In this document: positions 33,204 through 44,529 of the stretch, piece after piece
How positions within the stretch are numbered: position 1 is the stretch's first letter
Layout of the letters: every line of letters starts with the position of its first letter
From: Escherichia coli
GTDB taxonomy: Bacteria; Pseudomonadota; Gammaproteobacteria; Enterobacterales; Enterobacteriaceae
Assembly (NCBI RefSeq): GCF_003018235.1
Contig: NZ_CP027437.1
Reading direction: 5' to 3' (one strand)
Length of the DNA: 64,000 nucleotides
The notes under the pieces: generated by a model
The model's database searches: none
Told to the model about the DNA's origin: nothing
The model's input: the letters and a program-made list of their open reading frames with translations, nothing else
Program-made: the position numbers and the translations under genes

Positions 33204-35126
33204 ATGACCGTGTATTCAGCGGGAGGTCCGCGCATGCCTGAGCCGGAAGAAGAACAGGCATTCACTGAAGAGGTGAACAGCGCCTTTTCCGGGCTGCCTC
33301 GTTTTGTGTCTGTAAAGCTGGGGCGCAGGATCAGCAGCGCATGGCAGACAAAGGGTTTTGCCGGTGCACGGGAAAAATTTGCGCTGATGGTTCAGAAGGA
33401 TTTGCCGTTCATTACCGGGGTGAATAAACGTTATGCCATTAATCCGGATGAATTACCGGGGTGGCTGTTTGGTGGGCTGGCATCTGATCAGGCATACGGT
33501 GCGGTTCATTCCATGACCTGGCGATTTAATGCCATGGTGGATGGTGACGACGGGGATGCGCATTTACTGGCTCAGGATCTGTCCGTGTTTCTTATTGCTG
33601 AAATGCAGCACCTGAGTGTTCTTCTTGCGGATGAAGATGCGGATGCGGCGGCAGATGCCATTTATGCCATGGTTGCCGGGCTTGTTGAGCATTTCCGGAT
33701 GGAGCCACCGGACTGGAAGCGTTTTATTGGCAGAAAGCTGACACTGGAGCAACTGACTGTTGCCATCAGCCGGATGCTGAGTGTTCGCTGGTGGCAGGGA
33801 AAACTCAGGGCATTCTCCCGTCGCTGGCGTGAACATCTGCTTATAGCTATGGGTGTCGTTCGTCGGCAGTCTTCACCGCACTGCAGTTATGAATGGGTGC
33901 AGAGGTGGCTGGCGGGGCGTAAGCACGGTCGAAGGCTGATGGCGGAAACGGACGTTGAGGATGAAGAAACAGGAGAAAGATTTTCACTTCTCGATTTGGT
34001 TGACAGCAGCATTTCAGATGCGGAGAAACGCCGCGCAGAGCTGATGACCAGGGTTAAGGGGCTGGAAGATTTAGCCCGTTTTGAAGGTGTGGCGCAGGAG
34101 CAGGGGTATATCGGGCTTTTTTTCACGATGACCGCGCCATCAAAATATCATGCCTGGCTGGAGACAGGATATCGCAATCGTCGTTATAACGGCGCAAGCC
34201 CGAAAGACACACAAAATTATTTCTCCGGACTCTGGCGTCAGATCAGTGCAACGCTGAGGCGCAGGGGGATCGGGATTTTTGGATTAAGAAGTGCCGAACC
34301 GCATCATGACGGAACGCCGCACTGGCATGGTGTTCTCTATGTGCATCAGGAGCATGCTGCCGCCTTACAGGACATTCTTGAGTATTACGCCAACCGCGAT
34401 GATGACGCGGGAAAAACGCCCATCCGCAAAGCAGGAAGAAAATCCCACCTGGAAATAAAACCGGTTCTTGATGATCTGGGGAGTGCCTCTGCCTATATCG
34501 CCAAGCATATTGGAATGAATCTTGACGGTTGTGCGCCAGGCGGAATGAATCATGAAACGGGCCATACACTGGTGGTCACTGCCCGCCACGCCTCGGCGTG
34601 GGCGTCATTATGGGGGATCAAGCAGTTTCAGTTTATAGGCAGCACACCGGTAAGTGTATGGCGTGAGCTGCGTCGCTTTAACAATCAGGCTCATGCTGAC
34701 CGGATAAGCCCGGCGCTGGGTGAGTTACACCGTGCAGCCAGTGAGGGTGACTGGAAAACCTATACCAGGCTGCAGGGTGGACCGTTTGTGGCACGAAGAG
34801 ATCTGGTCCTTCGCACATGGTATCAGCGTTCGGAGGAGCCGGATGAGTGTGGGCTACACACCAGTGCGATCAAAGGTGTTTATATGCCGGGGCGTGATAC
34901 GCCACCGGTAGTGACGCGTTCACGTAACTGGAGGATCACCCGGAACGTTACAACAGGCGCTCTCAATGTTAACCGGGGGTCTGCTTTAACGCCCTGGACT
35001 TGTGTCAATAACTGCATTTCGGGCAGAAAACGACCAGATGGTCATCCTCCGGATCCAGGTATAAGGATCCCTGTTCAACTGGAACTGAACTTCGGGGAAG
35101 AGAATAAAGGGAAAAGTGAGCAGTAA
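33204..35126 (+). CDS. Rolling-circle replication initiation endonuclease (HUH family; P2 gpA-like)
   Basis: GGGAGGA SD; HUH-type motif GTPHWHGVLYV; 640 aa in the position of gene A relative to int-C-cox. Confidence 0.75.
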   Translation: MTVYSAGGPRMPEPEEEQAFTEEVNSAFSGLPRFVSVKLGRRISSAWQTKGFAGAREKFALMVQKDLPFITGVNKRYAINPDELPGWLFGGLASDQAYGAVHSMTWRFNAMVDGDDGDAHLLAQDLSVFLIAEMQHLSVLLADEDADAAADAIYAMVAGLVEHFRMEPPDWKRFIGRKLTLEQLTVAISRMLSVRWWQGKLRAFSRRWREHLLIAMGVVRRQSSPHCSYEWVQRWLAGRKHGRRLMAETDVEDEETGERFSLLDLVDSSISDAEKRRAELMTRVKGLEDLARFEGVAQEQGYIGLFFTMTAPSKYHAWLETGYRNRRYNGASPKDTQNYFSGLWRQISATLRRRGIGIFGLRSAEPHHDGTPHWHGVLYVHQEHAAALQDILEYYANRDDDAGKTPIRKAGRKSHLEIKPVLDDLGSASAYIAKHIGMNLDGCAPGGMNHETGHTLVVTARHASAWASLWGIKQFQFIGSTPVSVWRELRRFNNQAHADRISPALGELHRAASEGDWKTYTRLQGGPFVARRDLVLRTWYQRSEEPDECGLHTSAIKGVYMPGRDTPPVVTRSRNWRITRNVTTGALNVNRGSALTPWTCVNNCISGRKRPDGHPPDPGIRIPVQLELNFGEENKGKSEQ

Positions 35127-35533: not shown

Positions 35534-36613
35534 ATGCAGGCGATCCTGACGGTATTCCCGCAGCGTAATGCCGGGATAACACTGATGAAAACAGGTAATC
35601 TGACAGCGCGGTTCAGGGACGGGCAGAGAATAATGATAAGGGATGTTCCGTCTGTGATGGCTGGGATGCCATCAGGAGAAATTCCGTCATCAGGACAGAG
35701 GCTGGCGGAAGAGGAAGGACTGACGGCTTTCTTTGCTGACGGAAGGGTAATAAAGCGTGCTGGTGGCAGTGATGCCATGGCGCGTTGGGTGAGCAGGATT
35801 GCAGGCTGCCAGTGTGAGAATGGTGATCACGTGGAGAACATGACAACAGCGCGGACAATGCAGGGAGAGGCGCTTCGGTTATGCCATGCCTGTGATAATC
35901 ATCATTATATGAAAGGATATCGGGCGCTGGCAGATGTGGCAGCCAGAAATCGTGCAGAATGGCTGATGGATTATATCAGGATGAGTCTGGGGCTGGGGGA
36001 AGATCATCAGGTGACCATTCCTGAGTTGTTTTGCTGGGCAGTGCTGAATGATGTGGCAGATGCTGTTCCGGTTATGATCGTAAGGCGTATCAGACAATTG
36101 CCGGAAGAGGAAAAGCTGAGCGGCACGATGAAAGAAGCAGATATTAATCCCTGGCAGACATCAGCAGGCACAGTGGTGAAGAAACTGGCAGATAATGCGA
36201 AGAGCGTTAATGTGTGCAATGTGCGGGTCAGACATGCAGTACGCCAGGAAGAACACAAAGAAATGGAAAAACCGGTGCTGAAACTTGTTGCAGACAGTGA
36301 TCCGGCTGCGGGCTATATGAGGAAGCCCAGAATGCAGCGGCTGTCTCTGCCGGGTTATACCTCGTGGGTGAAGCGTCAGCGATGCTGTGGATGCGGGAAA
36401 CCTGCAGATGATCCGCATCACATCACCGGGCACGGTTTTGGTGGTGCAGGGATAAAAGCCAGTGATTTGTTTGTGATCCCGCTGTGTCGGCAATGTCATC
36501 AGGAATTACACAATGACAGCAAGGCATGGGAGGAGAAAAACGGCAGTCAGTTGCTGTGGGTGATAAGGACGCTGGACAGGGCAGCGGGCATTGGCGCTTT
36601 AGTTGGGGGGTAA
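35534..36613 (+). CDS. Hypothetical protein with C-terminal HNH-like Cys/His nuclease motif
   Basis: CCGCGKPADDPHHITGHGFGGAGIKASDLFVIPLCRQCHQELHND; translationally coupled to upstream gene. Confidence 0.55.
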   Translation: MQAILTVFPQRNAGITLMKTGNLTARFRDGQRIMIRDVPSVMAGMPSGEIPSSGQRLAEEEGLTAFFADGRVIKRAGGSDAMARWVSRIAGCQCENGDHVENMTTARTMQGEALRLCHACDNHHYMKGYRALADVAARNRAEWLMDYIRMSLGLGEDHQVTIPELFCWAVLNDVADAVPVMIVRRIRQLPEEEKLSGTMKEADINPWQTSAGTVVKKLADNAKSVNVCNVRVRHAVRQEEHKEMEKPVLKLVADSDPAAGYMRKPRMQRLSLPGYTSWVKRQRCCGCGKPADDPHHITGHGFGGAGIKASDLFVIPLCRQCHQELHNDSKAWEEKNGSQLLWVIRTLDRAAGIGALVGG

Positions 36614-36614
36614 C

Positions 36615-37319
36615 ATGACACCGCAACAGATGGTATGGGCGAGAGAGCAGGTTATTTTTGCACTGAATCCACCGGATAAACGTCAGAAGGGGCAACTGGA
36701 GGCATTTGGTGATTTTGCCAGGTCAGACACCAGGCGTTACGGGAGGCAGAGAAACAGGACACTGAACATTGATGGCCGGTGGTATTGTCAGGATGGTGAT
36801 CCGGTACATGCTGCGGCAACAGCCTGTTATGCAATACAACCGGATATGATCACCAGGGAAGCGTTCAGAACGGCACAACTGAGGAGGAGGATTTATTGTC
36901 TGGAGGATTATCATCGGGCCTGGGTGTTATTCAGTTACAGCTTGCAGAAAAAACGAATACACCATCTTCTGGTCAGTGAGTACATCTGGATGAGGATGTT
37001 CGAGCGGTTGCAGGGGAAACGGGTTACGGACAGGATGACAGGAAATCTGATTGAAATAGCGAGGATGGCTGCATGGAATGCTGCAGTGACAGCCGGTGGG
37101 ATTGTTGCAGGTAAGGTTCTGATTGCTCCTTCATGTGCGGCGCAGATTGCAGGTGTAAAACCAAACACATGGAGTCAGCATTACAAGGCTCACTGGTGTT
37201 TTATGCATGAAGTATGCGATGAACTGGATCATGAGGCGCTGGTGACCATTACAGGAATAAAAAATCACCAAAAAAACGGCGAAAAATATAAATTTGCTAA
37301 AGTGAATATTTTAAGGTAG
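36615..37319 (+). CDS. Hypothetical protein (234 aa); a late-gene antiterminator role is possible by position only
   Basis: Last long ORF before a terminator and the late region; no motif recognised with confidence. Confidence 0.4.
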   Translation: MTPQQMVWAREQVIFALNPPDKRQKGQLEAFGDFARSDTRRYGRQRNRTLNIDGRWYCQDGDPVHAAATACYAIQPDMITREAFRTAQLRRRIYCLEDYHRAWVLFSYSLQKKRIHHLLVSEYIWMRMFERLQGKRVTDRMTGNLIEIARMAAWNAAVTAGGIVAGKVLIAPSCAAQIAGVKPNTWSQHYKAHWCFMHEVCDELDHEALVTITGIKNHQKNGEKYKFAKVNILR

Positions 37320-37365
37320 ATTTGAGGCAAATTTGATAGTCTGCCGTATTTGTAAGCAGAGCATA

Positions 37366-37389
37366 AACCCGCATATTGCGGGTTTTTTT
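37366..37389 (+). terminator. Rho-independent terminator
   Basis: ACCCGC-atatt-GCGGGT hairpin followed by TTTTTTT. Confidence 0.55.
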
Positions 37390-37513
37390 ATGCCCGAAAT
37401 TTTCCCTCAGCGCAATAAATACGCTGGTGGTTGTGAGTACCGGTCTTTCAGCTTGCTGGCTTTTTCGACAAGAGTTATTGGTATGCCACGTTAACCGGAC
37501 AGGGGGAAAAGAC

Positions 37514-37862: not shown

Positions 37863-38930
37863 ATGACGCATGTTGTAAAAATATCAGAAAGTGAACTGGT
37901 CAATGCTGACTGCCTGGAATTTATACACACGTTGCCAGATGACAGTATTGACCTGATCGTTACCGATCCACCGTACTTTAAAGTGAAACCCAATGGCTGG
38001 GATAACCAGTGGAAGGGTGATGAAGATTACCTGAAGTGGCTGGATCAGTGTCTTGCGCAGTTCTGGCGGGTGCTGAAACCTGCCGGAAGTCTTTACCTGT
38101 TCTGTGGCCATCGCCTGGCATCTGACATCGAAATCATGATGCGTGAACGCTTTAATGTGCTGAACCATATTATCTGGGCGAAGCCGTCCGGACGCTGGAA
38201 CGGATGCAACAAGGAAAGCCTGAGGGCGTATTTCCCGGCCACAGAGCGCATTCTGTTCGCGGAACACTATCTGGAGCCGTATCGCCCGAAAGATGATGGT
38301 TATGAGGCGAAGGGCAGGGCACTGAAACAGCATGTGATGGCACCGCTGATTTCTTACTTTCGTGATGCGCGTGCCGCCCTTGGGATAACGGCAAAACAGA
38401 TTGCTGATGTCACAGGAAAGAAAAACATGGTGTCGCACTGGTTCAGTGCCAGTCAGTGGCAGCTGCCGAACGAAAGCGATTATCTGAAATTACAGGCGCT
38501 GTTTGCCCGGGTGGCAGAAGAGAAGCATCAGCGCGGAGAACTGGAAAAGCCACACCACCAGCTGGTGGTAACGTATACCTCACTGAACCGGCAGTATGCG
38601 GAGTTGCTGAGTGAATACAAAAATCTGCGCCGGTATTTTGGCGTGACGGCGCGGGTCCCGTACACCGATGTGTGGACGCACAAGCCGGTCCAGTTTTACC
38701 CGGGTAAACACCCCTGTGAAAAACCGGCGGAGATGCTGCGGCAGATAATTTGTGCGAGCAGCCGTCCTGGTGACATGGTGGCGGATTTCTTTATGGGGTC
38801 GGGCTCAACCATAAAAGCCGCTATGGCGCTGGGGCGTCGTGCAATTGGTGTTGAACTGGAAGAGGAACGTTTTGCGCAGACCGTGAAAGAGATTAGTCAT
38901 ATCCTGACAGGCTCAATTGATGACGGATAA
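37863..38930 (+). CDS. DNA methyltransferase, beta-class N6-adenine/N4-cytosine
   Basis: Motif IV DPPY (IVTDPPYF) precedes motif I FMGSGST; 355 aa. Confidence 0.85.
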   Translation: MTHVVKISESELVNADCLEFIHTLPDDSIDLIVTDPPYFKVKPNGWDNQWKGDEDYLKWLDQCLAQFWRVLKPAGSLYLFCGHRLASDIEIMMRERFNVLNHIIWAKPSGRWNGCNKESLRAYFPATERILFAEHYLEPYRPKDDGYEAKGRALKQHVMAPLISYFRDARAALGITAKQIADVTGKKNMVSHWFSASQWQLPNESDYLKLQALFARVAEEKHQRGELEKPHHQLVVTYTSLNRQYAELLSEYKNLRRYFGVTARVPYTDVWTHKPVQFYPGKHPCEKPAEMLRQIICASSRPGDMVADFFMGSGSTIKAAMALGRRAIGVELEEERFAQTVKEISHILTGSIDDG

Positions 38931-39381
38931 GGATGGATAAAGACATGGTCAGTTCAGGATGCGAAGCAAGTAAACAGATAAGGCTATAAAAAAAACTGAC
39001 AGTAGAAAAATAGCTTTTTCCCAGGTATTCATGAACACAATCTCTTAAAAGCGCCCGCTGATACCAGCGGGCAATACATACTGGCATTGATGTTAAGTTT
39101 ACAGGTTTCATTTATCGTATCGTGCGACACGACGTTGTTATGTTAATAAGTGTGATTTTTGATGTGAAATGTTTGTTGCGTGTTTTTTGATGGGTTTCTC
39201 ATTTTTCAGGCATCATCTCGTCACTGATGTGCAGCACAGCGATGAGGTGCTACTACTTCCACGGAGCGGATTTTGTCTTTTTTGTGGGTGGTAAAAATCT
39301 CCTTATAGCAGGATGTGATAATTATTTATCAGTATAATCTTATGAGATTGACGCGATTTCTCCGGATTTGTTAGAAGATCA

Positions 39382-39456
39382 TGCATGGTGAATCCACCTC
39401 AGCGGTGGGTCATAATGACCGCCTGTTCGCCGGTTCAATCCCTGCGGGGGCCACCA
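39382..39456 (+). pseudogene. tRNA-Ile(CAU)-like remnant: intact-looking anticodon loop/T-arm/acceptor-CCA 3' half joined to a non-tRNA 5' half
   Basis: 3' part ...GTCATAATGACCGCCTGTTCGCCGGTTCAATCCCTGCGGGGGCCACCA resembles an ileX-type tRNA; no complementary 5' acceptor strand, so no cloverleaf. Confidence 0.3.
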
Positions 39457-39457
39457 T

Positions 39458-39534
39458 GCGCCGTTAGCTCAGCTGGACAGAGCAATTGCCTTCTAAGCAA
39501 TCGGTCACTGGTTCGAATCCAGTATGGCGCACCA
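39458..39534 (+). tRNA. tRNA-Arg (anticodon UCU)
   Basis: Manual cloverleaf: acceptor GCGCCGT/ATGGCGC, D-arm GCTC..GAGC, anticodon loop CTTCTAA, T-arm ACTGG-TTCGAAT-CCAGT, CCA end. Confidence 0.85.
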
Positions 39535-39535
39535 T

Positions 39536-39610
39536 GCGGTCATCGTATAATGGCTATTACCTCGGCCTTCCAGGCTGATGATGCGGGTTCGATTCCAGCT
39601 GGCCGCTCCA
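39536..39610 (+). tRNA. tRNA-Gly (anticodon UCC)
   Basis: Manual cloverleaf: acceptor GCGGTCA/TGGCCGC, anticodon loop CTTCCAG, T-loop TTCGATT, CCA end; close to glyT tRNA as I recall it. Confidence 0.8.
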
Positions 39611-39630
39611 TAGAGGATTATGGGGACTGT

Positions 39631-39768
39631 ATGTTGAGTATTTTTCTGCGTTACCTTTCATCGGTAAAAATAAACACACAACAACTATTTATGCTGGCAT
39701 TAGCAATGATAGTTATTGGTTTTCTCGGAACTTGTTTATTTATTTACTATATTTTTGTCGATAATTAA
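39631..39768 (+). CDS. Hypothetical small hydrophobic peptide (45 aa) in moron position
   Basis: MLSIFLRYLSSVKINTQQLFMLALAMIVIGFLGTCLFIYYIFVDN; weak SD; lies between tRNAs and the esterase gene. Confidence 0.25.
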   Translation: MLSIFLRYLSSVKINTQQLFMLALAMIVIGFLGTCLFIYYIFVDN

Positions 39769-40321
39769 TATTTTTAGTATTTAGCCAGAGTGGCCCAAAC
39801 AGAAAATAAAGTTACTGTGAAACAGGGGGGCCTAATAAAAATAATCACCACTAAATTCGGGGCTTTAAAAATGCTAAGAACATCACATTTCATTATGCCG
39901 GGTACTGGAGAATAACATGATGTTTTGTTAAAAATGATTTTGCATGGTGAATCCCCCTGTGCGGCGGGGCATAATGACAGATGTTTGGTTGCGTATTGTA
40001 TAGGCAAGTTGCGGATTCTGTCTGGTCATTGCAGAATTCACCGGGAGGCACCCGGCACCATGCAGATAATTGTTTTGTGGATGATAATACCAGCCCCTCT
40101 CCGGAGGGGCTTTCTTATGGGCGAAAAAAAGCCCGGGGAGCCGGGCAATAGCATGAGATATACGTTTTTATAGACGTACAGATTTTAATCAGAATTTATG
40201 GGGCTGCGCAACTGCGTGGCCTTTTTTGTTTTGTGGGCTAAGGTTTTCCCCTTTGATTCGCCATGTGGCTGAACCTGTAGCCCGCCACTGTTCAGACGCA
40301 ATCCCGGCAAGGGGAGGAATA

Positions 40322-42349
40322 ATGGCATTTAAACACTACGATCTGGTCTCTGCCAGCAGCGGTGATGAACTGCAAAAGAAACTGACAGAAAAAATAAATG
40401 AAGGGTGGCAGCCATACGGTTCGCCGCTTGTTTCGTATGACGATAACGGGATGAAAATTATTCAGGCCATTGCAGCAGAGGGTGATGTCAGGATCCCGGT
40501 TGAAACGCCTGATGATGGTGGTGATTCACCGGTCACAATGACCTCCGGTGCACCTGATTATTATTATGTTGTTGTGCTTGCCGGACAGTCCAACGGCATG
40601 GCCTACGGTGAGGGGCTTCCGTTACCGGACTCTTATGACCGCCCGGACCCGCGCATTAAACAGCTGGCACGCCGCAGTACAGTGACGCCGGGTGGGGACG
40701 CCTGTGCATACAATGATGTGATTCCGGCTGACCATTGTCTGCATGATGTACAGGATATGAGCGGTGTTAATCATCCGAAAGCGGACCTGAATAAGGGGCA
40801 GTATGGCTGTGTCAGTCAGGGGCTGCATATTGCCAAAAAACTGCTGTCGTATATCCCGCAGAATGCAGGGATACTTCTGGTGCCCTGCTGCCGTGGTGGT
40901 TCTGCATTCACCACCGGGGCTGACGGCACATTCAGTGAGGTCACCGGCGCATCCGCTGACGCTGCACGCTGGGGTGCCGGTAAACCCCTGTATCAGGACA
41001 TGGTCAGCCGGACAAAAGCGGCGCTGGCCAAGAACCCGAAAAACAGGCTGCTGGCGGTGGTATGGATGCAGGGCGAGGCAGACCTTGCGTCAGGCAGTCA
41101 GCAGCATAACGGGTTATTCACGGCCATGGTTCAGCAGTTCCGGACTGACCTGTCCTCACTTGCTGCGCAGTGCGTGAGTGGCAATGCTGCCACGGTGCCG
41201 TGGATTTGTGGTGATACCACGTATTACTGGAAGGCCACTTATGGCACACAGTATGAAGCCATTTATGGAGCCTATAAGAATCTGTCCGCACAGAATATTT
41301 TCTTTGTACCGTTCCTGACAGATGAAAACGGCGCAAACACGCCAACGAACCAGCCAGCGGAAGACCCGGATATTGTGGCTGTGGGGTATTACGGTGCGGC
41401 ATCACGAACACAGGCGAACTGGACGACAGCGCAACGTGACAGCCATTTCAGCACCTGGGCGCGTCGCGGCATCATTTCTGACCGCCTTGCGTCAGCTATT
41501 CTGGTGCACGCGGGACGTACGTCAGGTTTCATTACCGGTGAAGTTTCTTCTCCGGACACTGCATCCGGTGACGGTGGTTCGTCCACTGATGCGGGTACGG
41601 ATGCGGGGACCGGCACTTCCGGAACAGGAAGTGATGACGCTACCGGAACGACACCAGCCACCGCTGCCATTATTCTGAGTGCAGACGGAGGGGATGTTTC
41701 GGCACAGGGCTGGACGGTGGAAGGCACCACGGTGACCACCACGGCAAACACGGTGACTTCATCGGGTGAGGCGCTGGCGCAGAATGTGCTGAGTGTTCCG
41801 AAACAGAGCGGGGCAGCATGGAAGCTTGTTCATACCACCACAGATGAGCCAGCGGAACTGCTGAACAATGGCGGTGAGTTCCTGTGTCGTTTCCGTATCA
41901 CGGATACTGCCATTGCTGAGGGGCGTTATGCCTTTGGTCTTTACTGGCTTCCGGACGCACAGAAGATACCAGCCGGTGCGACATTCAATAAAACAGGAAG
42001 CGGGATGTCCCCGTCCATGCTCAACTTCTATGTCCAGACGGATGGCAGCAACATAAACCTGTTATCACACTGCAGTACGAAGAGTGCAGGGAATCTGAAG
42101 ATTGGCTCATTCGGTGCATTTAACAATGAATGGCATACCTTCCGTCTTCGCTACCATGGTGGCAATACGGCAAGAGCAACGGTGACGCTGGACAGTCAGG
42201 TGGTGGGAGATATAACGCTGTTATGTGCGCCGTCAGCGGCCAGTGCCGGTGACACTCTGTCGATGATAAGTATCACATCGGGTGATACATACAGTATTGA
42301 AGTGGAAAGCCTGAGTGTGACGGTGAACGGGGCTGCGGCAGCGGCGTGA
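40322..42349 (+). CDS. Prophage-type sialate O-acetylesterase-like protein (nanS-p-like)
   Basis: GGGGAGG SD; N-terminal MAFKHYDLV... domain then VVLAGQSNGMAYGEG esterase-like segment; located between tRNAs and holin as in Stx-type lambdoid prophages (recollection). Confidence 0.55.
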   Translation: MAFKHYDLVSASSGDELQKKLTEKINEGWQPYGSPLVSYDDNGMKIIQAIAAEGDVRIPVETPDDGGDSPVTMTSGAPDYYYVVVLAGQSNGMAYGEGLPLPDSYDRPDPRIKQLARRSTVTPGGDACAYNDVIPADHCLHDVQDMSGVNHPKADLNKGQYGCVSQGLHIAKKLLSYIPQNAGILLVPCCRGGSAFTTGADGTFSEVTGASADAARWGAGKPLYQDMVSRTKAALAKNPKNRLLAVVWMQGEADLASGSQQHNGLFTAMVQQFRTDLSSLAAQCVSGNAATVPWICGDTTYYWKATYGTQYEAIYGAYKNLSAQNIFFVPFLTDENGANTPTNQPAEDPDIVAVGYYGAASRTQANWTTAQRDSHFSTWARRGIISDRLASAILVHAGRTSGFITGEVSSPDTASGDGGSSTDAGTDAGTGTSGTGSDDATGTTPATAAIILSADGGDVSAQGWTVEGTTVTTTANTVTSSGEALAQNVLSVPKQSGAAWKLVHTTTDEPAELLNNGGEFLCRFRITDTAIAEGRYAFGLYWLPDAQKIPAGATFNKTGSGMSPSMLNFYVQTDGSNINLLSHCSTKSAGNLKIGSFGAFNNEWHTFRLRYHGGNTARATVTLDSQVVGDITLLCAPSAASAGDTLSMISITSGDTYSIEVESLSVTVNGAAAAA

Positions 42350-42689
42350 GGATAAAAAAAGCTGCCGTGGAAAGTGTCCTGAACCGGCAGCAAGGTCAAA
42401 TGATGGATATACCAATAAGGTTTAATAGGCGCAGATATTTCTAACCGGAAGGCACTTAACGGTCAATAATGGAGGTTGGTAATGACATTTATACAACTGA
42501 TACTGCTATATTTCTGCACGGTGGTCTGTGCGTTATATCTGGTGAGCGGTGGCTATAAAGCCATCAGAAATTATGTCCGCCGAAAAATTGATGATGCAGC
42601 GGCTGAGAAGCTCAGCAGAACAACACAGGCTGCCTCATCCCCGAACGAACCAACCCTTCCACAGTAACGTCTCTCAGCGGGAAAATACC

Positions 42690-43025
42690 ATGACAGAACT
42701 GAACAAACTGGTCACTGCAGATGCAGTGAAGGCCGCACTGCGCTCTGAAGAAGTGCGGGGAAAACTGAAGGAAACCATCCGCAAAACGTTTGAGGCACAG
42801 ATTGATGCGGATGTGGAAGCGGTGCTGGATGAGCTTATCGGGCCTGCGGAAGCTCAGCCGGGAGCACCGGCCGGAGAGGATGCGCAGGCGGATGACACGT
42901 CAGCGGAAAACGGTGCGGCACAACCGGAACCTGAATCAGGAACCGAAGCTCAACCGGACGCTGCTTCCGGAACAGGAACGCAACCGGAGGGTACCCCGGA
43001 GCCGGAACCGGCGACGTTGCTGTAA
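42690..43025 (+). CDS. Hypothetical acidic protein
   Basis: [32 protein letters not shown]...; Ala/Glu/Pro-rich tail. Confidence 0.4.
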
Positions 43026-43038
43026 CACCTCATACTCA

Positions 43039-43066
43039 GGCCACCAGCATACAGCGGTGGCCTTTT
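43039..43066 (+). terminator. Rho-independent terminator upstream of lysis genes
   Basis: GGCCACC-N10-GGTGGCC followed by TTTT. Confidence 0.5.
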
Positions 43067-43102
43067 GTTATCGTGCGCTTCCGGAGAACGGGAGACGGGG
43101 AT

Positions 43103-43318
43103 ATGTACCAGATGGAAAAAATCACAACAGGGGTGTCATACACCACGTCAGCGGCGGGAACGGGATACTGGTTACTGCAGCTGCTGGACAGGGTCTCCCC
43201 GTCCCAGTGGGCGGCGATAGGCGTGCTGGGGAGTCTGCTGTTTGGTCTGCTGACGTACCTGACGAACCTGTATTTTAAAATCAGAGAGGACCGTCGTAAG
43301 GCGGCGCGGGGAGAATAA
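43103..43318 (+). CDS. S: Holin, phage-21 S-type (pinholin-like), dual-start motif
   Basis: [71 protein letters not shown]; two TM segments; Met1 and Met4 starts. Confidence 0.85.
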
Positions 43319-43995: not shown

Positions 43996-44529
43996 ATGAA
44001 CGCAAAAATCAGATACGGCCTGTCGGCTGCCGTTCTGGCGCTGATTGCCGCAGGGGCTTCTGCGCCAGAAATCCTTGACCAGTTTCTGAATGAAAAAGAA
44101 GGTAATCACACCACGGCATACCGTGATGGTGCGGGTATCTGGACCATCTGCCGTGGTGCCATTCTGGTGGACGGTAAGCCTGTTGTTCCCGGCATGAAGT
44201 TGTCGAGGGAAAAATGCGACCAGGTTAACGCCATCGAACGTGACAGGGCGCTGGCATGGGTGGAGAAAAACATCAAAGTGCCGCTGACCGAACCGCAGAA
44301 AGCGGGGATTGCGTCATTCTGCCCGTACAACATCGGTCCTTCGAAATGCTTCACCTCAACGTTTTACCGGAGACTGAACGCCGGAGACCGTAAGGGGGCA
44401 TGTGCTGAAATCCGTCGGTGGATATATGACGGTGGCAGGGACTGCCGTATCCGCTCAAACAACTGCTACGGTCAGGTATCCCGGCGTGACCAGGAGAGTG
44501 CGCTGGCGTGCTGGGGTATCGACAGATAA
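43996..44529 (+). CDS. R: SAR endolysin (T4-lysozyme-like muramidase)
   Basis: Gly/Ala-rich N-terminal SAR segment GLSAAVLALIAAGASA; catalytic E-x8-D-x5-T (EGNHTTAYRDGAGIWT). Confidence 0.9.
   Translation: MNAKIRYGLSAAVLALIAAGASAPEILDQFLNEKEGNHTTAYRDGAGIWTICRGAILVDGKPVVPGMKLSREKCDQVNAIERDRALAWVEKNIKVPLTEPQKAGIASFCPYNIGPSKCFTSTFYRRLNAGDRKGACAEIRRWIYDGGRDCRIRSNNCYGQVSRRDQESALACWGIDR

Follow-up and report, generated by a model that had tools for sequence, protein, structure and literature searches.

The interval between the tRNA genes and the sialate esterase gene

The window studied here is a stretch of 64,000 nucleotides from Escherichia coli (contig NZ_CP027437.1), and the interval in question, positions 39611–40321, lies in the late region of a lambdoid prophage, between tRNA-Gly and the gene for a NanS-p-type sialate O-acetylesterase. 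It contains a short open reading frame (hereafter, ORF45), an sRNA gene of the STnc100 family, a putative minus-strand anti-sRNA gene convergent with the latter, and three terminator-like hairpins (Table 1). The context genes recognized by Pfam are those for Q, for a DNA methylase (complete, and situated between the Q region and the tRNA array), for the esterase, whose homologues are annotated in phage 933W and in relatives, and for lysozyme. The tR'-like terminator, matched in 933W by a terminator annotated at the corresponding position, is the context for Q-dependent read-through. In an identical segment from O158:H23, the stretch from tRNA-Gly to the esterase gene is left blank by PGAP, which in relatives places spurious pseudogenes over the STnc100-family gene.

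Table 1. Features of the locus, in window coordinates, with the basis of each assignment.
Feature	Coordinates	Strand	Basis or remark
Q late-gene antiterminator	36603–37319	+	Pfam Phage_antiter_Q, 97.3 bits
tR'-like intrinsic terminator, just 3' of Q	37365–37385	+	9-bp stem followed by a T-tract
Chimera of STnc100 5' domain and tRNA 3' half; first repeat copy, tRNA-array leader	39355–39457	+	Repeat and Rfam
tRNA-Arg (TCT)	39458–39534	+	ARAGORN; Rfam tRNA, 69.3 bits
tRNA-Gly (TCC)	39536–39610	+	ARAGORN; Rfam tRNA, 46.6 bits
ORF45, candidate small single-pass membrane protein, sole cargo of the moron slot	39631–39768	+	
Spacer	39769–39911	+	Variable to ~39880, then a conserved block (39881–39911) before the sRNA
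STnc100-family sRNA gene (relatives: EcOnc27/sRNA103/PasD)	39912–40122	+	Rfam RF02076, full-length
Predicted terminator of the STnc100-family sRNA (hairpin 1)	40092–40111	+	−17.3 kcal/mol
Putative AsxR/AgvB/EcOnc03-class anti-sRNA	40124–40176	−	Rfam (sub-threshold) and synteny with 933W AsxR
Predicted intrinsic terminator of the anti-sRNA (hairpin 2), followed by U7	40131–40146	−	Terminator scan and folding
Putative anti-sRNA promoter	40182–40211	−	Hexamers shared with 933W AsxR
Third terminator-like hairpin with a T-tract (hairpin 3), 5' of the esterase gene	40200–40223	+	10-bp stem
NanS-p-type sialate O-acetylesterase (DUF1737 + SASA + DUF6645)	40322–42349	+	Pfam; first backbone gene past the slot

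The locus can be directly compared with the stx2 locus of phage 933W (Q, pR', tR', tRNAs, stx2AB, STnc100/AsxR, esterase, S, R), with which it agrees in gene order, the backbone being homologous to the left and to the right of the cargo slot. Downstream of stx2B, 933W carries an STnc100 copy (207.7 bits), AsxR on the minus strand (88.1 bits), hairpin 3 and the esterase gene, and positions 39880–40330 of the window align to this segment with a mean column identity of 78%. The two loci differ in cargo (ORF45 in the window, stx2AB in 933W), in the tRNA set (a chimera, Arg(TCT) and Gly(TCC) in the window; ileZ, argN and argO in 933W), and in the methylase gene, which is complete in the window, whereas 933W keeps only its 3' remnant. 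As stx2AB of 933W is flanked by the last tRNA and the esterase gene, the first-pass annotation was right in identifying the interval with the stxAB slot of Stx phages. However, its description of a practically empty slot of ~700 bp, with nothing but the ORF and stacked hairpins, is wrong, since the repeat and the hairpins belong to two sRNA genes, and this pair is conserved phage backbone, also found downstream of stx2B in 933W. Thus, the true variable cargo slot, as delimited by the alignment, is only 39611–~39890 (~280 bp).

The claim that the interval carries neither Stx nor any other recognizable toxin is supported by our searches. Stx2A and Stx2B of 933W gave no significant tblastn match in the whole window (best E-value 0.64), the scores in the positive control, 933W itself, being 658 and 185 bits, respectively. 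None of the nine ORFs of the interval (at least 37 aa) matched Pfam significantly, the sole match being that of Keratin_assoc to ORF45 (E-value 0.13; 12.4 bits at a cut-off of 23.5 bits), and blastn with 933W stxAB and its flanks produced two ~20-nt matches in the window, both outside the interval, with E-values of at least 0.26. The cargo of Stx-converting phages, that is, stxA encoding the RIP-type N-glycosidase together with stxB between the tRNAs and the esterase gene, is not found here, and a risk assessment can list the whole window as stx-negative.

A repeated element of 38 nt, noted earlier, is indeed present and covers 43 nt with 84% identity (39936–39978 repeats 39377–39419), its second copy being no mere repeat, but the 5' domain of the STnc100-family sRNA gene. 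The first copy belongs to the chimera preceding tRNA-Arg, in which an STnc100 5' domain (Rfam STnc100 25.8 bits, under the cut-off) is joined to a 3' half like that of the ileZ/ileX tRNA and resembling ileZ of 933W. The predicted fold is cloverleaf-like, with an 8-bp closing helix, and neither ARAGORN nor the Rfam tRNA model calls a tRNA here. A possibility is that this chimera serves as a functional leader or processing element; if so, it would hint at an exchange of parts between phage tRNA arrays and STnc100-type sRNAs.

In a second strain, the module is identical over ~3 kb within otherwise diverged prophages, which suggests recent exchange of the intact module.

The convergent sRNA genes and their hairpins

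The plus-strand gene (211 nt) matches the RF02076 model over positions 1–206 of 206 with 145.6 bits (E-value 3e-33), about three times the gathering score of 47 bits, and since membership requires a full-length match at or above this score, the gene is assigned to the STnc100 family. The 8-bp closing helix, the internal hairpins and the Rho-independent terminator are the same as in STnc100, alias EcOnc27 of O157 Sakai and sRNA103 of EDL933, and PasD1/PasD2 of EPEC E2348/69 are structurally related to this family. Both the minimum free energy and the centroid folds retain the closing helix and the terminator, and RNAalifold applied to seven homologues yields 32 pairs, two of them with compensatory changes. 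The location is also that of STnc100/EcOnc27, on the late strand of the late region, past the moron cargo and directly 5' of the sialate esterase gene, the difference from the Stx phages being that no stxB lies upstream in the window. EcOnc27/sRNA103 overlaps STnc100 and binds Hfq (PMC12711010), and by analogy with these homologues the RNA of the window may be a discrete Hfq-associated transcript. The promoter scan, which included the spacer 39769–39911, found no sigma-70 consensus promoter for this gene. The central ~65 nt (39976–40040) are 38–51% identical to the STnc100 copies of three divergent prophage lineages, and hence any seed located there may differ from those of known copies.

The putative minus-strand RNA (about 51–53 nt) has the 5' variable region CGUCUAUAAAAACGUA and the 3' core UAUCUCAUGCUAUUGCCCG; comparison of seven loci shows conservation of the core and variation of the 16 nt at the 5' end. 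Its Rfam scores are below the gathering thresholds for both AsxR (RF02703, 44.5 vs. 63 bits) and AgvB (RF02702, 28.4 vs. 56 bits). It is predicted to fold into a 5' hairpin and a terminator (z = −3.8), and the terminator stem shows a compensatory change from G–C to A–U among the seven loci. The putative promoter consists of the −10 box TAAAAT (40187–40182) and the −35 box TTGCGC (40211–40206) separated by 18 nt; the latter matches the consensus at three out of six positions, which leaves the promoter below the threshold of a consensus scan. The same hexamers with the same spacing are found 5' of the authentic AsxR of 933W, and they are conserved in the seven loci.

It has been previously reported that anti-sRNAs of this class are 51–60 nt long, with a conserved 3' part of ~42 nt and a variable 5' part of 14–18 nt, and that convergent sRNAs are flanked by the moron CDS and a downstream ORF that is conserved (Tree et al., 2014; PMC4104026). 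The RNA of the window agrees with the class in length and in the arrangement of the conserved and variable parts; it also lies 3' of pR' and faces a second sRNA, in the stretch from the cargo to the conserved downstream ORF, and the locus matches the "convergent sRNAs at the moron site" of that study. With AsxR, the FnrS antagonist of the Stx2 phages Sp5/933W, it shares the locus, strand, promoter hexamers, length of ~51 nt, 3' core and terminator architecture, and in both cases the partner is a convergent STnc100-family gene; the differences are at five out of 16 nt of the 5' region, with predicted loss of pairing to the FnrS loop, and in the terminator loop, which is 2 nt shorter. With AgvB (EcOnc01a/b of Sp10/Sp17, the anti-GcvB sponge), it shares the class, the moron-site position and the 3' core, which matches the AgvB consensus, whereas the CA-rich motif AACAACACAACAA mimicking GcvB targets is missing from its 5' end. 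GcvB was rejected as a target, the predicted duplex (−8.9 kcal/mol) being weaker than those of shuffled sequences, compared with −24.8 kcal/mol for the AgvB consensus. The exact allele has no match among IMG/VR viral contigs, and no second site complementary to the 5' end exists within the window. Judged by homology and synteny, the minus-strand RNA is an AsxR/AgvB-type anti-sRNA with a rare, novel 5' allele.

Both hairpins listed by the first-pass annotation exist. Hairpin 1, AGCCCCTC-TCCG-GAGGGGCT, is predicted to terminate the STnc100-family sRNA, and hairpin 2, GCCCGG-GGAG-CCGGGC, which had been placed 4 nt off (at 40127–40142), is predicted to terminate the anti-sRNA when read on the minus strand. 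The two would be opposite-strand terminators of convergent genes, standing back to back. Hairpin 3 had been overlooked; it has a folding energy of −19.7 kcal/mol (z = −3.5), overlaps the −35 box of the anti-sRNA, and is nearly invariant in 933W and the other five aligned loci. The region 38900–40400 contains seven terminator-like sites, compared with 1.3 ± 1.0 in shuffled sequences. A PasA/PasC-like sRNA is expected between the esterase and holin genes from a 2026 preprint (Zhu, Shabalina and Storz); this stretch has no Rfam match for such an sRNA and contains two weak terminator-like sites, no more than in shuffles.

ORF45, the cargo of the slot

The hydrophobic ORF of 45 aa (MLSIFLRYLSSVKINTQQLFMLALAMIVIGFLGTCLFIYYIFVDN) reported earlier is present, running from an ATG to a TAA stop, with one predicted transmembrane helix (Kyte–Doolittle maximum 2.62, residues 20–38). 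Its GC content is 28%, compared with ~52% in the surroundings, and it thus represents extra DNA of unlike base composition set between backbone genes, as expected of a moron in the sense of Juhala et al. (2000); the earlier suggestion that it is a possible moron stands as a reasonable candidate assignment. ORF45 occurs in 23 out of 5426 complete E. coli genomes, where it is unannotated in each, compared with thousands of genomes for the tRNA and sRNA backbone on either side. Nine alleles from these 23 carriers were examined; in each of them ORF45 follows tRNA-Gly, and some have different cargo downstream (iraM, a tolA-like gene). Its homologues form seven protein clusters, all from E. coli, and a profile search of 1.84 billion proteins recovered five representatives, all of the same E. 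coli family. No family was found in Pfam, NCBIfam, PHROGs or PADLOC, and none of 50,697 phage records was matched by tblastn.

The small inner-membrane proteins of enterobacteria include the type I toxins Hok, Ldr and TisB and the regulators MgrB and AcrZ. ORF45 bears a resemblance, in general features only, to these families: 45 residues, encoded in AT-rich, horizontally acquired DNA, with a basic N-terminal part that precedes a single, strongly hydrophobic helix; it has no sequence relationship to any family searched. The marks of a type I toxin or small membrane toxin, family homology or an antisense antitoxin, were not found, and the minus strand across ORF45 contains no promoter-like site or detectable antisense RNA.

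The frame and the position of the stop codon are intact in eight out of nine alleles, the exception being that of strain M3 with frame-breaking indels. The conservation of ORF45 is 88–91%, vs. 66–70% for the spacer 3' of it. The pN/pS ratio ranges from 0.2 to 0.8, calculated from very few changes, and the distribution of variable sites over the three codon positions (8/5/9) shows no enrichment of the third one; thus, coding selection is weakly supported. As 45-codon ORFs arise in 12% (ATG starts) to 24% (any start codon) of shuffles of the 301-nt AT-rich slot, the mere presence of ORF45 is not significant. RNA structure was rejected as the cause of conservation, the z-score across ORF45 being +0.43, with none of 53 pairs compensatory. 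A moron in the above sense also has its own promoter and terminator, so that it can be expressed from the repressed prophage. The scan found no promoter or terminator specific to ORF45, which starts 20 nt past tRNA-Gly, and its expression would depend on the promoter of the tRNA array and the terminator of the STnc100-family gene.

Interpretation of the locus

Considering sequence homology, structure, synteny and the absence of a toxin, we interpret the interval as, most probably (about 0.8), the moron-site cassette that is standard in Stx-type lambdoid prophages, minus the toxin. The view of an essentially empty moron slot, with a non-genic repeat, plain terminators and ORF45 as the only possible gene, agrees with the lack of a protein family for any ORF of the interval and with the blank left by PGAP in the O158:H23 segment, but it is made very improbable by an STnc100 match that spans the whole model and scores three times the threshold, by the homology to EcOnc27/AsxR, the pair defined by experiment in Stx2 phages, and by the conserved anti-sRNA promoter. 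A scar of recent stx deletion from a once Stx-converting phage would account for the Stx-phage type of the backbone on both sides; yet no stx remnant is seen in the blastn search with 933W stxAB and flanks, the tRNA set is unlike that of 933W, and the slot is occupied by ORF45, placed after tRNA-Gly in each of the nine alleles examined and in some of them accompanied by other downstream cargo, so that we consider this origin highly unlikely. The two sRNA genes could also be decaying relics in a cryptic prophage, with expression and function gone, as might be suspected from the anti-sRNA scoring under the Rfam thresholds and from the lower STnc100 score than in 933W (145.6 vs. 207.7 bits). Such decay is quite unlikely, given that every structural helix and terminator is intact, the anti-sRNA retains its promoter hexamers without change, and ~3 kb of the module are identical in a second strain within otherwise diverged prophages.

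For the minus-strand RNA, the role of a functional AsxR orthologue, which would sponge and destabilize FnrS and thereby de-repress chuS as in Stx2 phage Sp5, is rather unlikely, although AsxR is the best Rfam match, 41 out of 53 positions are identical by hand count, and the position and promoter coincide. Apart from the score under the family threshold, there are five differences within the first 16 nt, and three out of 11 AsxR–FnrS pairs would be lost (hand count). FnrS pairing of the AsxR type is not supported, as the predicted duplex with the FnrS terminator region reaches −5.0 kcal/mol, a value attained by 43% of shuffles, in a test of low power, since the AsxR–FnrS control itself (−7.7 kcal/mol, an 11-pair helix) is attained by 9.6% of them. 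A whole-RNA duplexfold screen for targets was unspecific, the same control not being significant. For ORF45, a serious alternative, with chances somewhat short of even, is that it is untranslated and its conserved 138 nt work at the RNA level, whether by forming a 3' external transcribed spacer of the tRNA operon, comparable to the 3'ETS-leuZ sponge, or by belonging to a longer STnc100-family precursor. The start 20 nt past tRNA-Gly with no terminator in between, the long invariant stretches that include synonymous sites, the absence of third-position bias, and the frequency of such ORFs in shuffles speak for it; the unstructured segment without compensatory pairs, the in-frame start in all intact alleles (GTG or ATG at codon 2 if the first ATG is lost), the stop codon fixed in place (TAA or TGA), and the conservative replacements that retain a strong transmembrane segment speak against it. 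A bolder reading, less likely than not, is that ORF45 represents a real, hitherto unannotated family of inner-membrane peptides of 44–45 residues, a moron expressed from the tRNA operon in lysogens, and that the anti-sRNA, its 5' end being nearly unique, sponges a host sRNA other than FnrS and GcvB.

From characterized homologues, we infer expression, Hfq binding, sponge activity, terminator function, and translation of ORF45, and the cassette would then work as follows. Downstream of Q, pR' and tR' come the methylase gene, tRNA-Arg/tRNA-Gly and the ~280-bp slot with ORF45, followed by the STnc100-family sRNA, the convergent anti-sRNA, hairpin 3, and the ribosome-binding site and start of the NanS-p esterase/lysis operon. 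In the lysogen, pR' transcripts would end at tR', and both sRNAs would be made independently, ORF45 being transcribed together with the tRNAs. The variable 5' end of the anti-sRNA may sequester a host Hfq-dependent sRNA, and its conserved 3' end may provide stability and contact with Hfq, while the STnc100-family RNA would base-pair with mRNA targets. Hairpins 1 and 3 would block transcription from the tRNA and sRNA promoters from entering the lysis genes, and after induction, Q-modified RNA polymerase would pass all three hairpins.

The locus consists of fresh members of already known kinds; it is mostly ordinary and does not challenge the current understanding. It extends the picture drawn by Tree et al. 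(2014; PMC4104026) and by Zhu, Shabalina and Storz (2026), and contributes a further 5' variant to the class of anti-sRNAs, whose members re-target host sRNAs by changing 14–18 nt. Where a lambdoid prophage has an "empty" toxin slot, the DNA there is not silent; both sRNA genes and ORF45 are missed by PGAP, and the latter is flagged as a candidate small protein, a rare small membrane ORF linked to tRNAs. If the tentative roles of ORF45 and the anti-sRNA hold true, the stx slot with the sRNA pair would be a general, rapidly re-targeted cassette for host manipulation, including that by non-toxigenic prophages.

The stxAB position and its conserved backbone

The gene order around the interval 39611-40321 is that of the late region of a Stx-type lambdoid phage, and the interval itself lies, as the first-pass annotation stated, where Stx phages carry stxAB: in the Stx2 phage 933W, stx2A and stx2B are located between the last tRNA gene (argO) and the esterase gene. 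The same annotation found no toxin here, and this holds in both searches performed. Pfam gave no significant match for any of the nine interval ORFs of at least 37 aa, the sole match being Keratin_assoc on the 45-aa ORF (ORF45; E 0.13, far under its cut-off); the proposed tblastn check with Stx2A and Stx2B of 933W yielded no significant match across all 64 kb (best E 0.64), while these queries scored 658 and 185 bits on 933W, used as a positive control. The window contains no stx DNA remnant.

The hydrophobic ORF and hairpin 1 are present as described. Hairpin 2 is real but was placed 4 nt away, and the direct repeat described as a 38-nt element extends over 43 nt (84% identity between the copies). 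The view that the interval holds only an ORF and hairpins does not stand, as the repeat and hairpins are parts of an STnc100 match and an AsxR/AgvB-type match. The earlier observation is confirmed and its interpretation is partly supported: the locus comprises an STnc100-family sRNA, a minus-strand AsxR/AgvB-type RNA (anti-sRNA) whose 5' end is novel, and, replacing stxAB, a small ORF that is rare and lacks annotation.

Features of the window and of related loci
Feature	Position	Strand	Remark
ssrA (tmRNA)	4756-5118	-	tag ANDENYALAA
P2-type replication protein GPA	33204-35126	+	259 bits
Q antiterminator	36603-37319
tR'-like terminator	37365-37385	+	directly 3' of Q
DNA methylase	37863-38930
TATAAT	39333-39338		5' of repeat copy 1
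STnc100/tRNA chimera	39355-39457	+
Repeat copy 1	39377-39419
tRNA-Arg(TCT)	39458-39534
tRNA-Gly(TCC)	39536-39610
ORF45	39631-39768	+	ATG to TAA
STnc100-family gene	39912-40122	+
Repeat copy 2	39936-39978
Hairpin 1	40092-40111
Hairpin 2	40131-40146
AsxR/AgvB match	40176-40126	-
Anti-sRNA -10 box TAAAAT	40187-40182	-	conserved
Anti-sRNA -35 box TTGCGC	40211-40206	-	conserved, seven-locus alignment
Hairpin 3	40200-40223	+	5' of esterase
NanS-p-type esterase	40322-42349		DUF1737 + SASA + DUF6645
DUF1378 protein	42476-42667
Lysozyme	43996-44529
PGAP pseudogene fragments	L003 2143-2271, L004 2015-2113, L005 2009-2130, L010 1533-1661	-	related prophages
iraM	L006 2216-2533	-	O170:H18 strain
tolA-like CDS	L008 1386-1814	+	mouse strain M3

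The pair of small RNAs

The match to Rfam STnc100 (RF02076) is full-length (145.6 bits, E 3e-33; gathering score 47), with repeat copy 2 as its 5' domain and hairpin 1 as its predicted terminator. The consensus fold of seven homologues has an 8-bp closing helix, three internal hairpins and the terminator, with compensatory changes at two pairs. In the Rfam scan of 933W, STnc100 (207.7 bits) starts 75 nt 3' of stx2B, convergent with AsxR (88.1 bits) and followed by a third hairpin and the esterase start, in the same order as here; positions 39880-40330 align with their 933W counterpart at a mean column identity of 78%, in an alignment that also covers hairpin 3, almost unchanged, and the ribosome-binding site of the esterase gene. 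Given these matches and the shared arrangement, 39912-40321 belongs to the conserved phage backbone rather than to the cargo. This is the sRNA-pair locus type that Tree et al. reported (2014; PMC4104026), whose plus-strand partner is EcOnc27 (sRNA103 in EDL933), an Hfq-binding RNA overlapping STnc100 (PMC12711010). In related prophages both sRNAs and ORF45 lack annotation, and the STnc100-family gene is overlain by minus-strand "hypothetical protein" pseudogene fragments in RefSeq/PGAP, probably an annotation artefact.

The anti-sRNA scores below the gathering thresholds of both related families (AsxR, 44.5 vs. 63 bits; AgvB, weaker, 28.4 vs. 56 bits), and hairpin 2 followed by U7 forms its predicted terminator, whose stem differs from that of AsxR by a compensatory G-C to A-U change. 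In the minus-strand alignment of seven loci, the putative promoter boxes, separated by an 18-nt spacer, and the core TCTCATGC(T/A)ATTGCCCG are conserved, and almost every lineage has its own version of the 5' segment. Judging by the alignment, this is the signature of the class defined by Tree et al. (PMC4104026), namely, 51-60 nt with a conserved 3' part of ~42 nt and a variable 5' part of 14-18 nt.

The 5' end CGUCUAUAAAAACGUA differs from that of AsxR, CGAUUAUUAAAACGAG, at five of 16 positions; counted by hand, three of the 11 AsxR–FnrS pairs would be lost, and the duplex predicted with the terminator of FnrS (-5.0 kcal/mol) is equalled by shuffles, compared to -7.7 kcal/mol for AsxR. AgvB carries a CA-rich GcvB-target mimic, which the anti-sRNA lacks, and the GcvB duplex reaches -8.9 kcal/mol vs. 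-24.8 kcal/mol for the AgvB consensus. Since neither AsxR-type FnrS pairing nor AgvB-type GcvB pairing is predicted, the anti-sRNA is a class member distinct from both. The allele is rare: it occurs at ≥99% identity in one of 5426 complete E. coli genomes and at 90-99% in two more, and its exact 26-mer is found in none of 2.9 million IMG/VR contigs.

Hairpin 3, unnoticed previously, is terminator-like, nearly invariant and followed by a T-tract. Its loop and 3' arm contain the -35 box of the anti-sRNA promoter (40182-40211), and hence a single DNA segment appears to be used by both strands. Overall, 38900-40400 has seven terminator-like sites vs. 1.3 ± 1.0 in shuffles.

The cargo slot and ORF45

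The difference from 933W is limited to about 39611-39890, which includes ORF45. Its product, MLSIFLRYLSSVKINTQQLFMLALAMIVIGFLGTCLFIYYIFVDN, has one strongly hydrophobic helix (Kyte–Doolittle maximum 2.62, residues 20-38). The segment is present in 23 of 5426 genomes and annotated in none; the peptides form seven 90%-identity clusters, exclusively from E. coli, and match no known family, none of 50,697 phage records and, in a profile search of 1.84 billion proteins, nothing beyond the ORF45 family itself.

In all nine alleles examined, tRNA-Gly immediately precedes the segment. In favor of a gene, the frame is intact in eight of the nine; alleles lacking the first ATG have GTG or ATG at codon 2, the stop position is constant (TAA or TGA), replacements are conservative, and in diverged loci ORF45 is 88-91% identical vs. 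66-70% for the spacer 3' of it. A structured RNA as the source of this conservation is disfavored, as the segment lacks both RNA structure (z = +0.43) and covariation. Also in favor of a gene, the GC content (28% vs. about 52% in the surroundings) is typical of a moron. On the other hand, an equally long ORF arises in 12-24% of shuffles, variable sites are spread 8/5/9 across the codon positions, pN/pS of 0.2-0.8 derives from a handful of changes, and indels of -2 and +5 occur in the allele of strain M3. We put the odds that ORF45 is translated and has a function at roughly even. Judging from its architecture, it may encode a small inner-membrane protein and be co-transcribed with the tRNAs. 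Relatives have other cargo in this slot: the O170:H18 strain has iraM, whose product is an anti-adaptor for RpoS degradation, instead of the anti-sRNA, and a tolA-like CDS follows the frameshifted ORF45 in M3.

Probable mosaicism and a proposed regulatory circuit

The tRNA array is headed by ileZ in 933W, tRNA-Thr in the O170:H18 relative, and here by a chimera, in which an STnc100 5' domain (25.8 bits, sub-threshold) and the 3' half of an ileZ/ileX-like tRNA, resembling 933W ileZ, meet at a shared CATAAT. Its fold resembles a cloverleaf closed by an 8-bp helix (GCAUGGUG/CACCAUGC), and it is called as tRNA by neither ARAGORN nor the Rfam tRNA model; matches that begin at the query start occur in only about 7 complete E. 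coli genomes. About 3 kb (~38000-41079), spanning the 3' part of the methylase gene, the tRNAs, ORF45, both sRNAs and the 5' part of the esterase gene, differ from E. coli O158:H23 (NZ_CP076709.1) by a single mismatch, with many mismatches in the flanks (in places about 60 in 100 nt), and the remainder of the O158:H23 stretch does not correspond to this window; by sequence comparison, the tract looks like a recently exchanged mosaic module. The P2-type GPA in a prophage with a lambdoid, Stx-phage-like late region suggests a mosaic replication module.

An sRNA is suggested to be common between the esterase gene and the holin region (Zhu, Shabalina and Storz, 2026 preprint), and a weak Esr41-like match in 933W likewise points to one; no PasA/PasC- or Esr41-like sRNA was detected at 42350-43300. 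Around the tR'-like terminator, 37327-37391 (+) weakly resembles isrK and the Trp leader in Rfam. A short pR' transcript could end at this terminator, much like StxS in Stx phages.

By analogy with characterized homologues, tR' would end pR' transcripts in the lysogen, the anti-sRNA, expressed from its own promoter, would sequester a host Hfq-dependent sRNA via its 5' end, and the STnc100-family RNA would act on mRNA targets, with hairpins 1 and 3 insulating the esterase/lysis operon from upstream promoters. Upon induction, Q-modified polymerase would read through all three hairpins; being perfectly antisense to this late transcript, the anti-sRNA could also act in cis.
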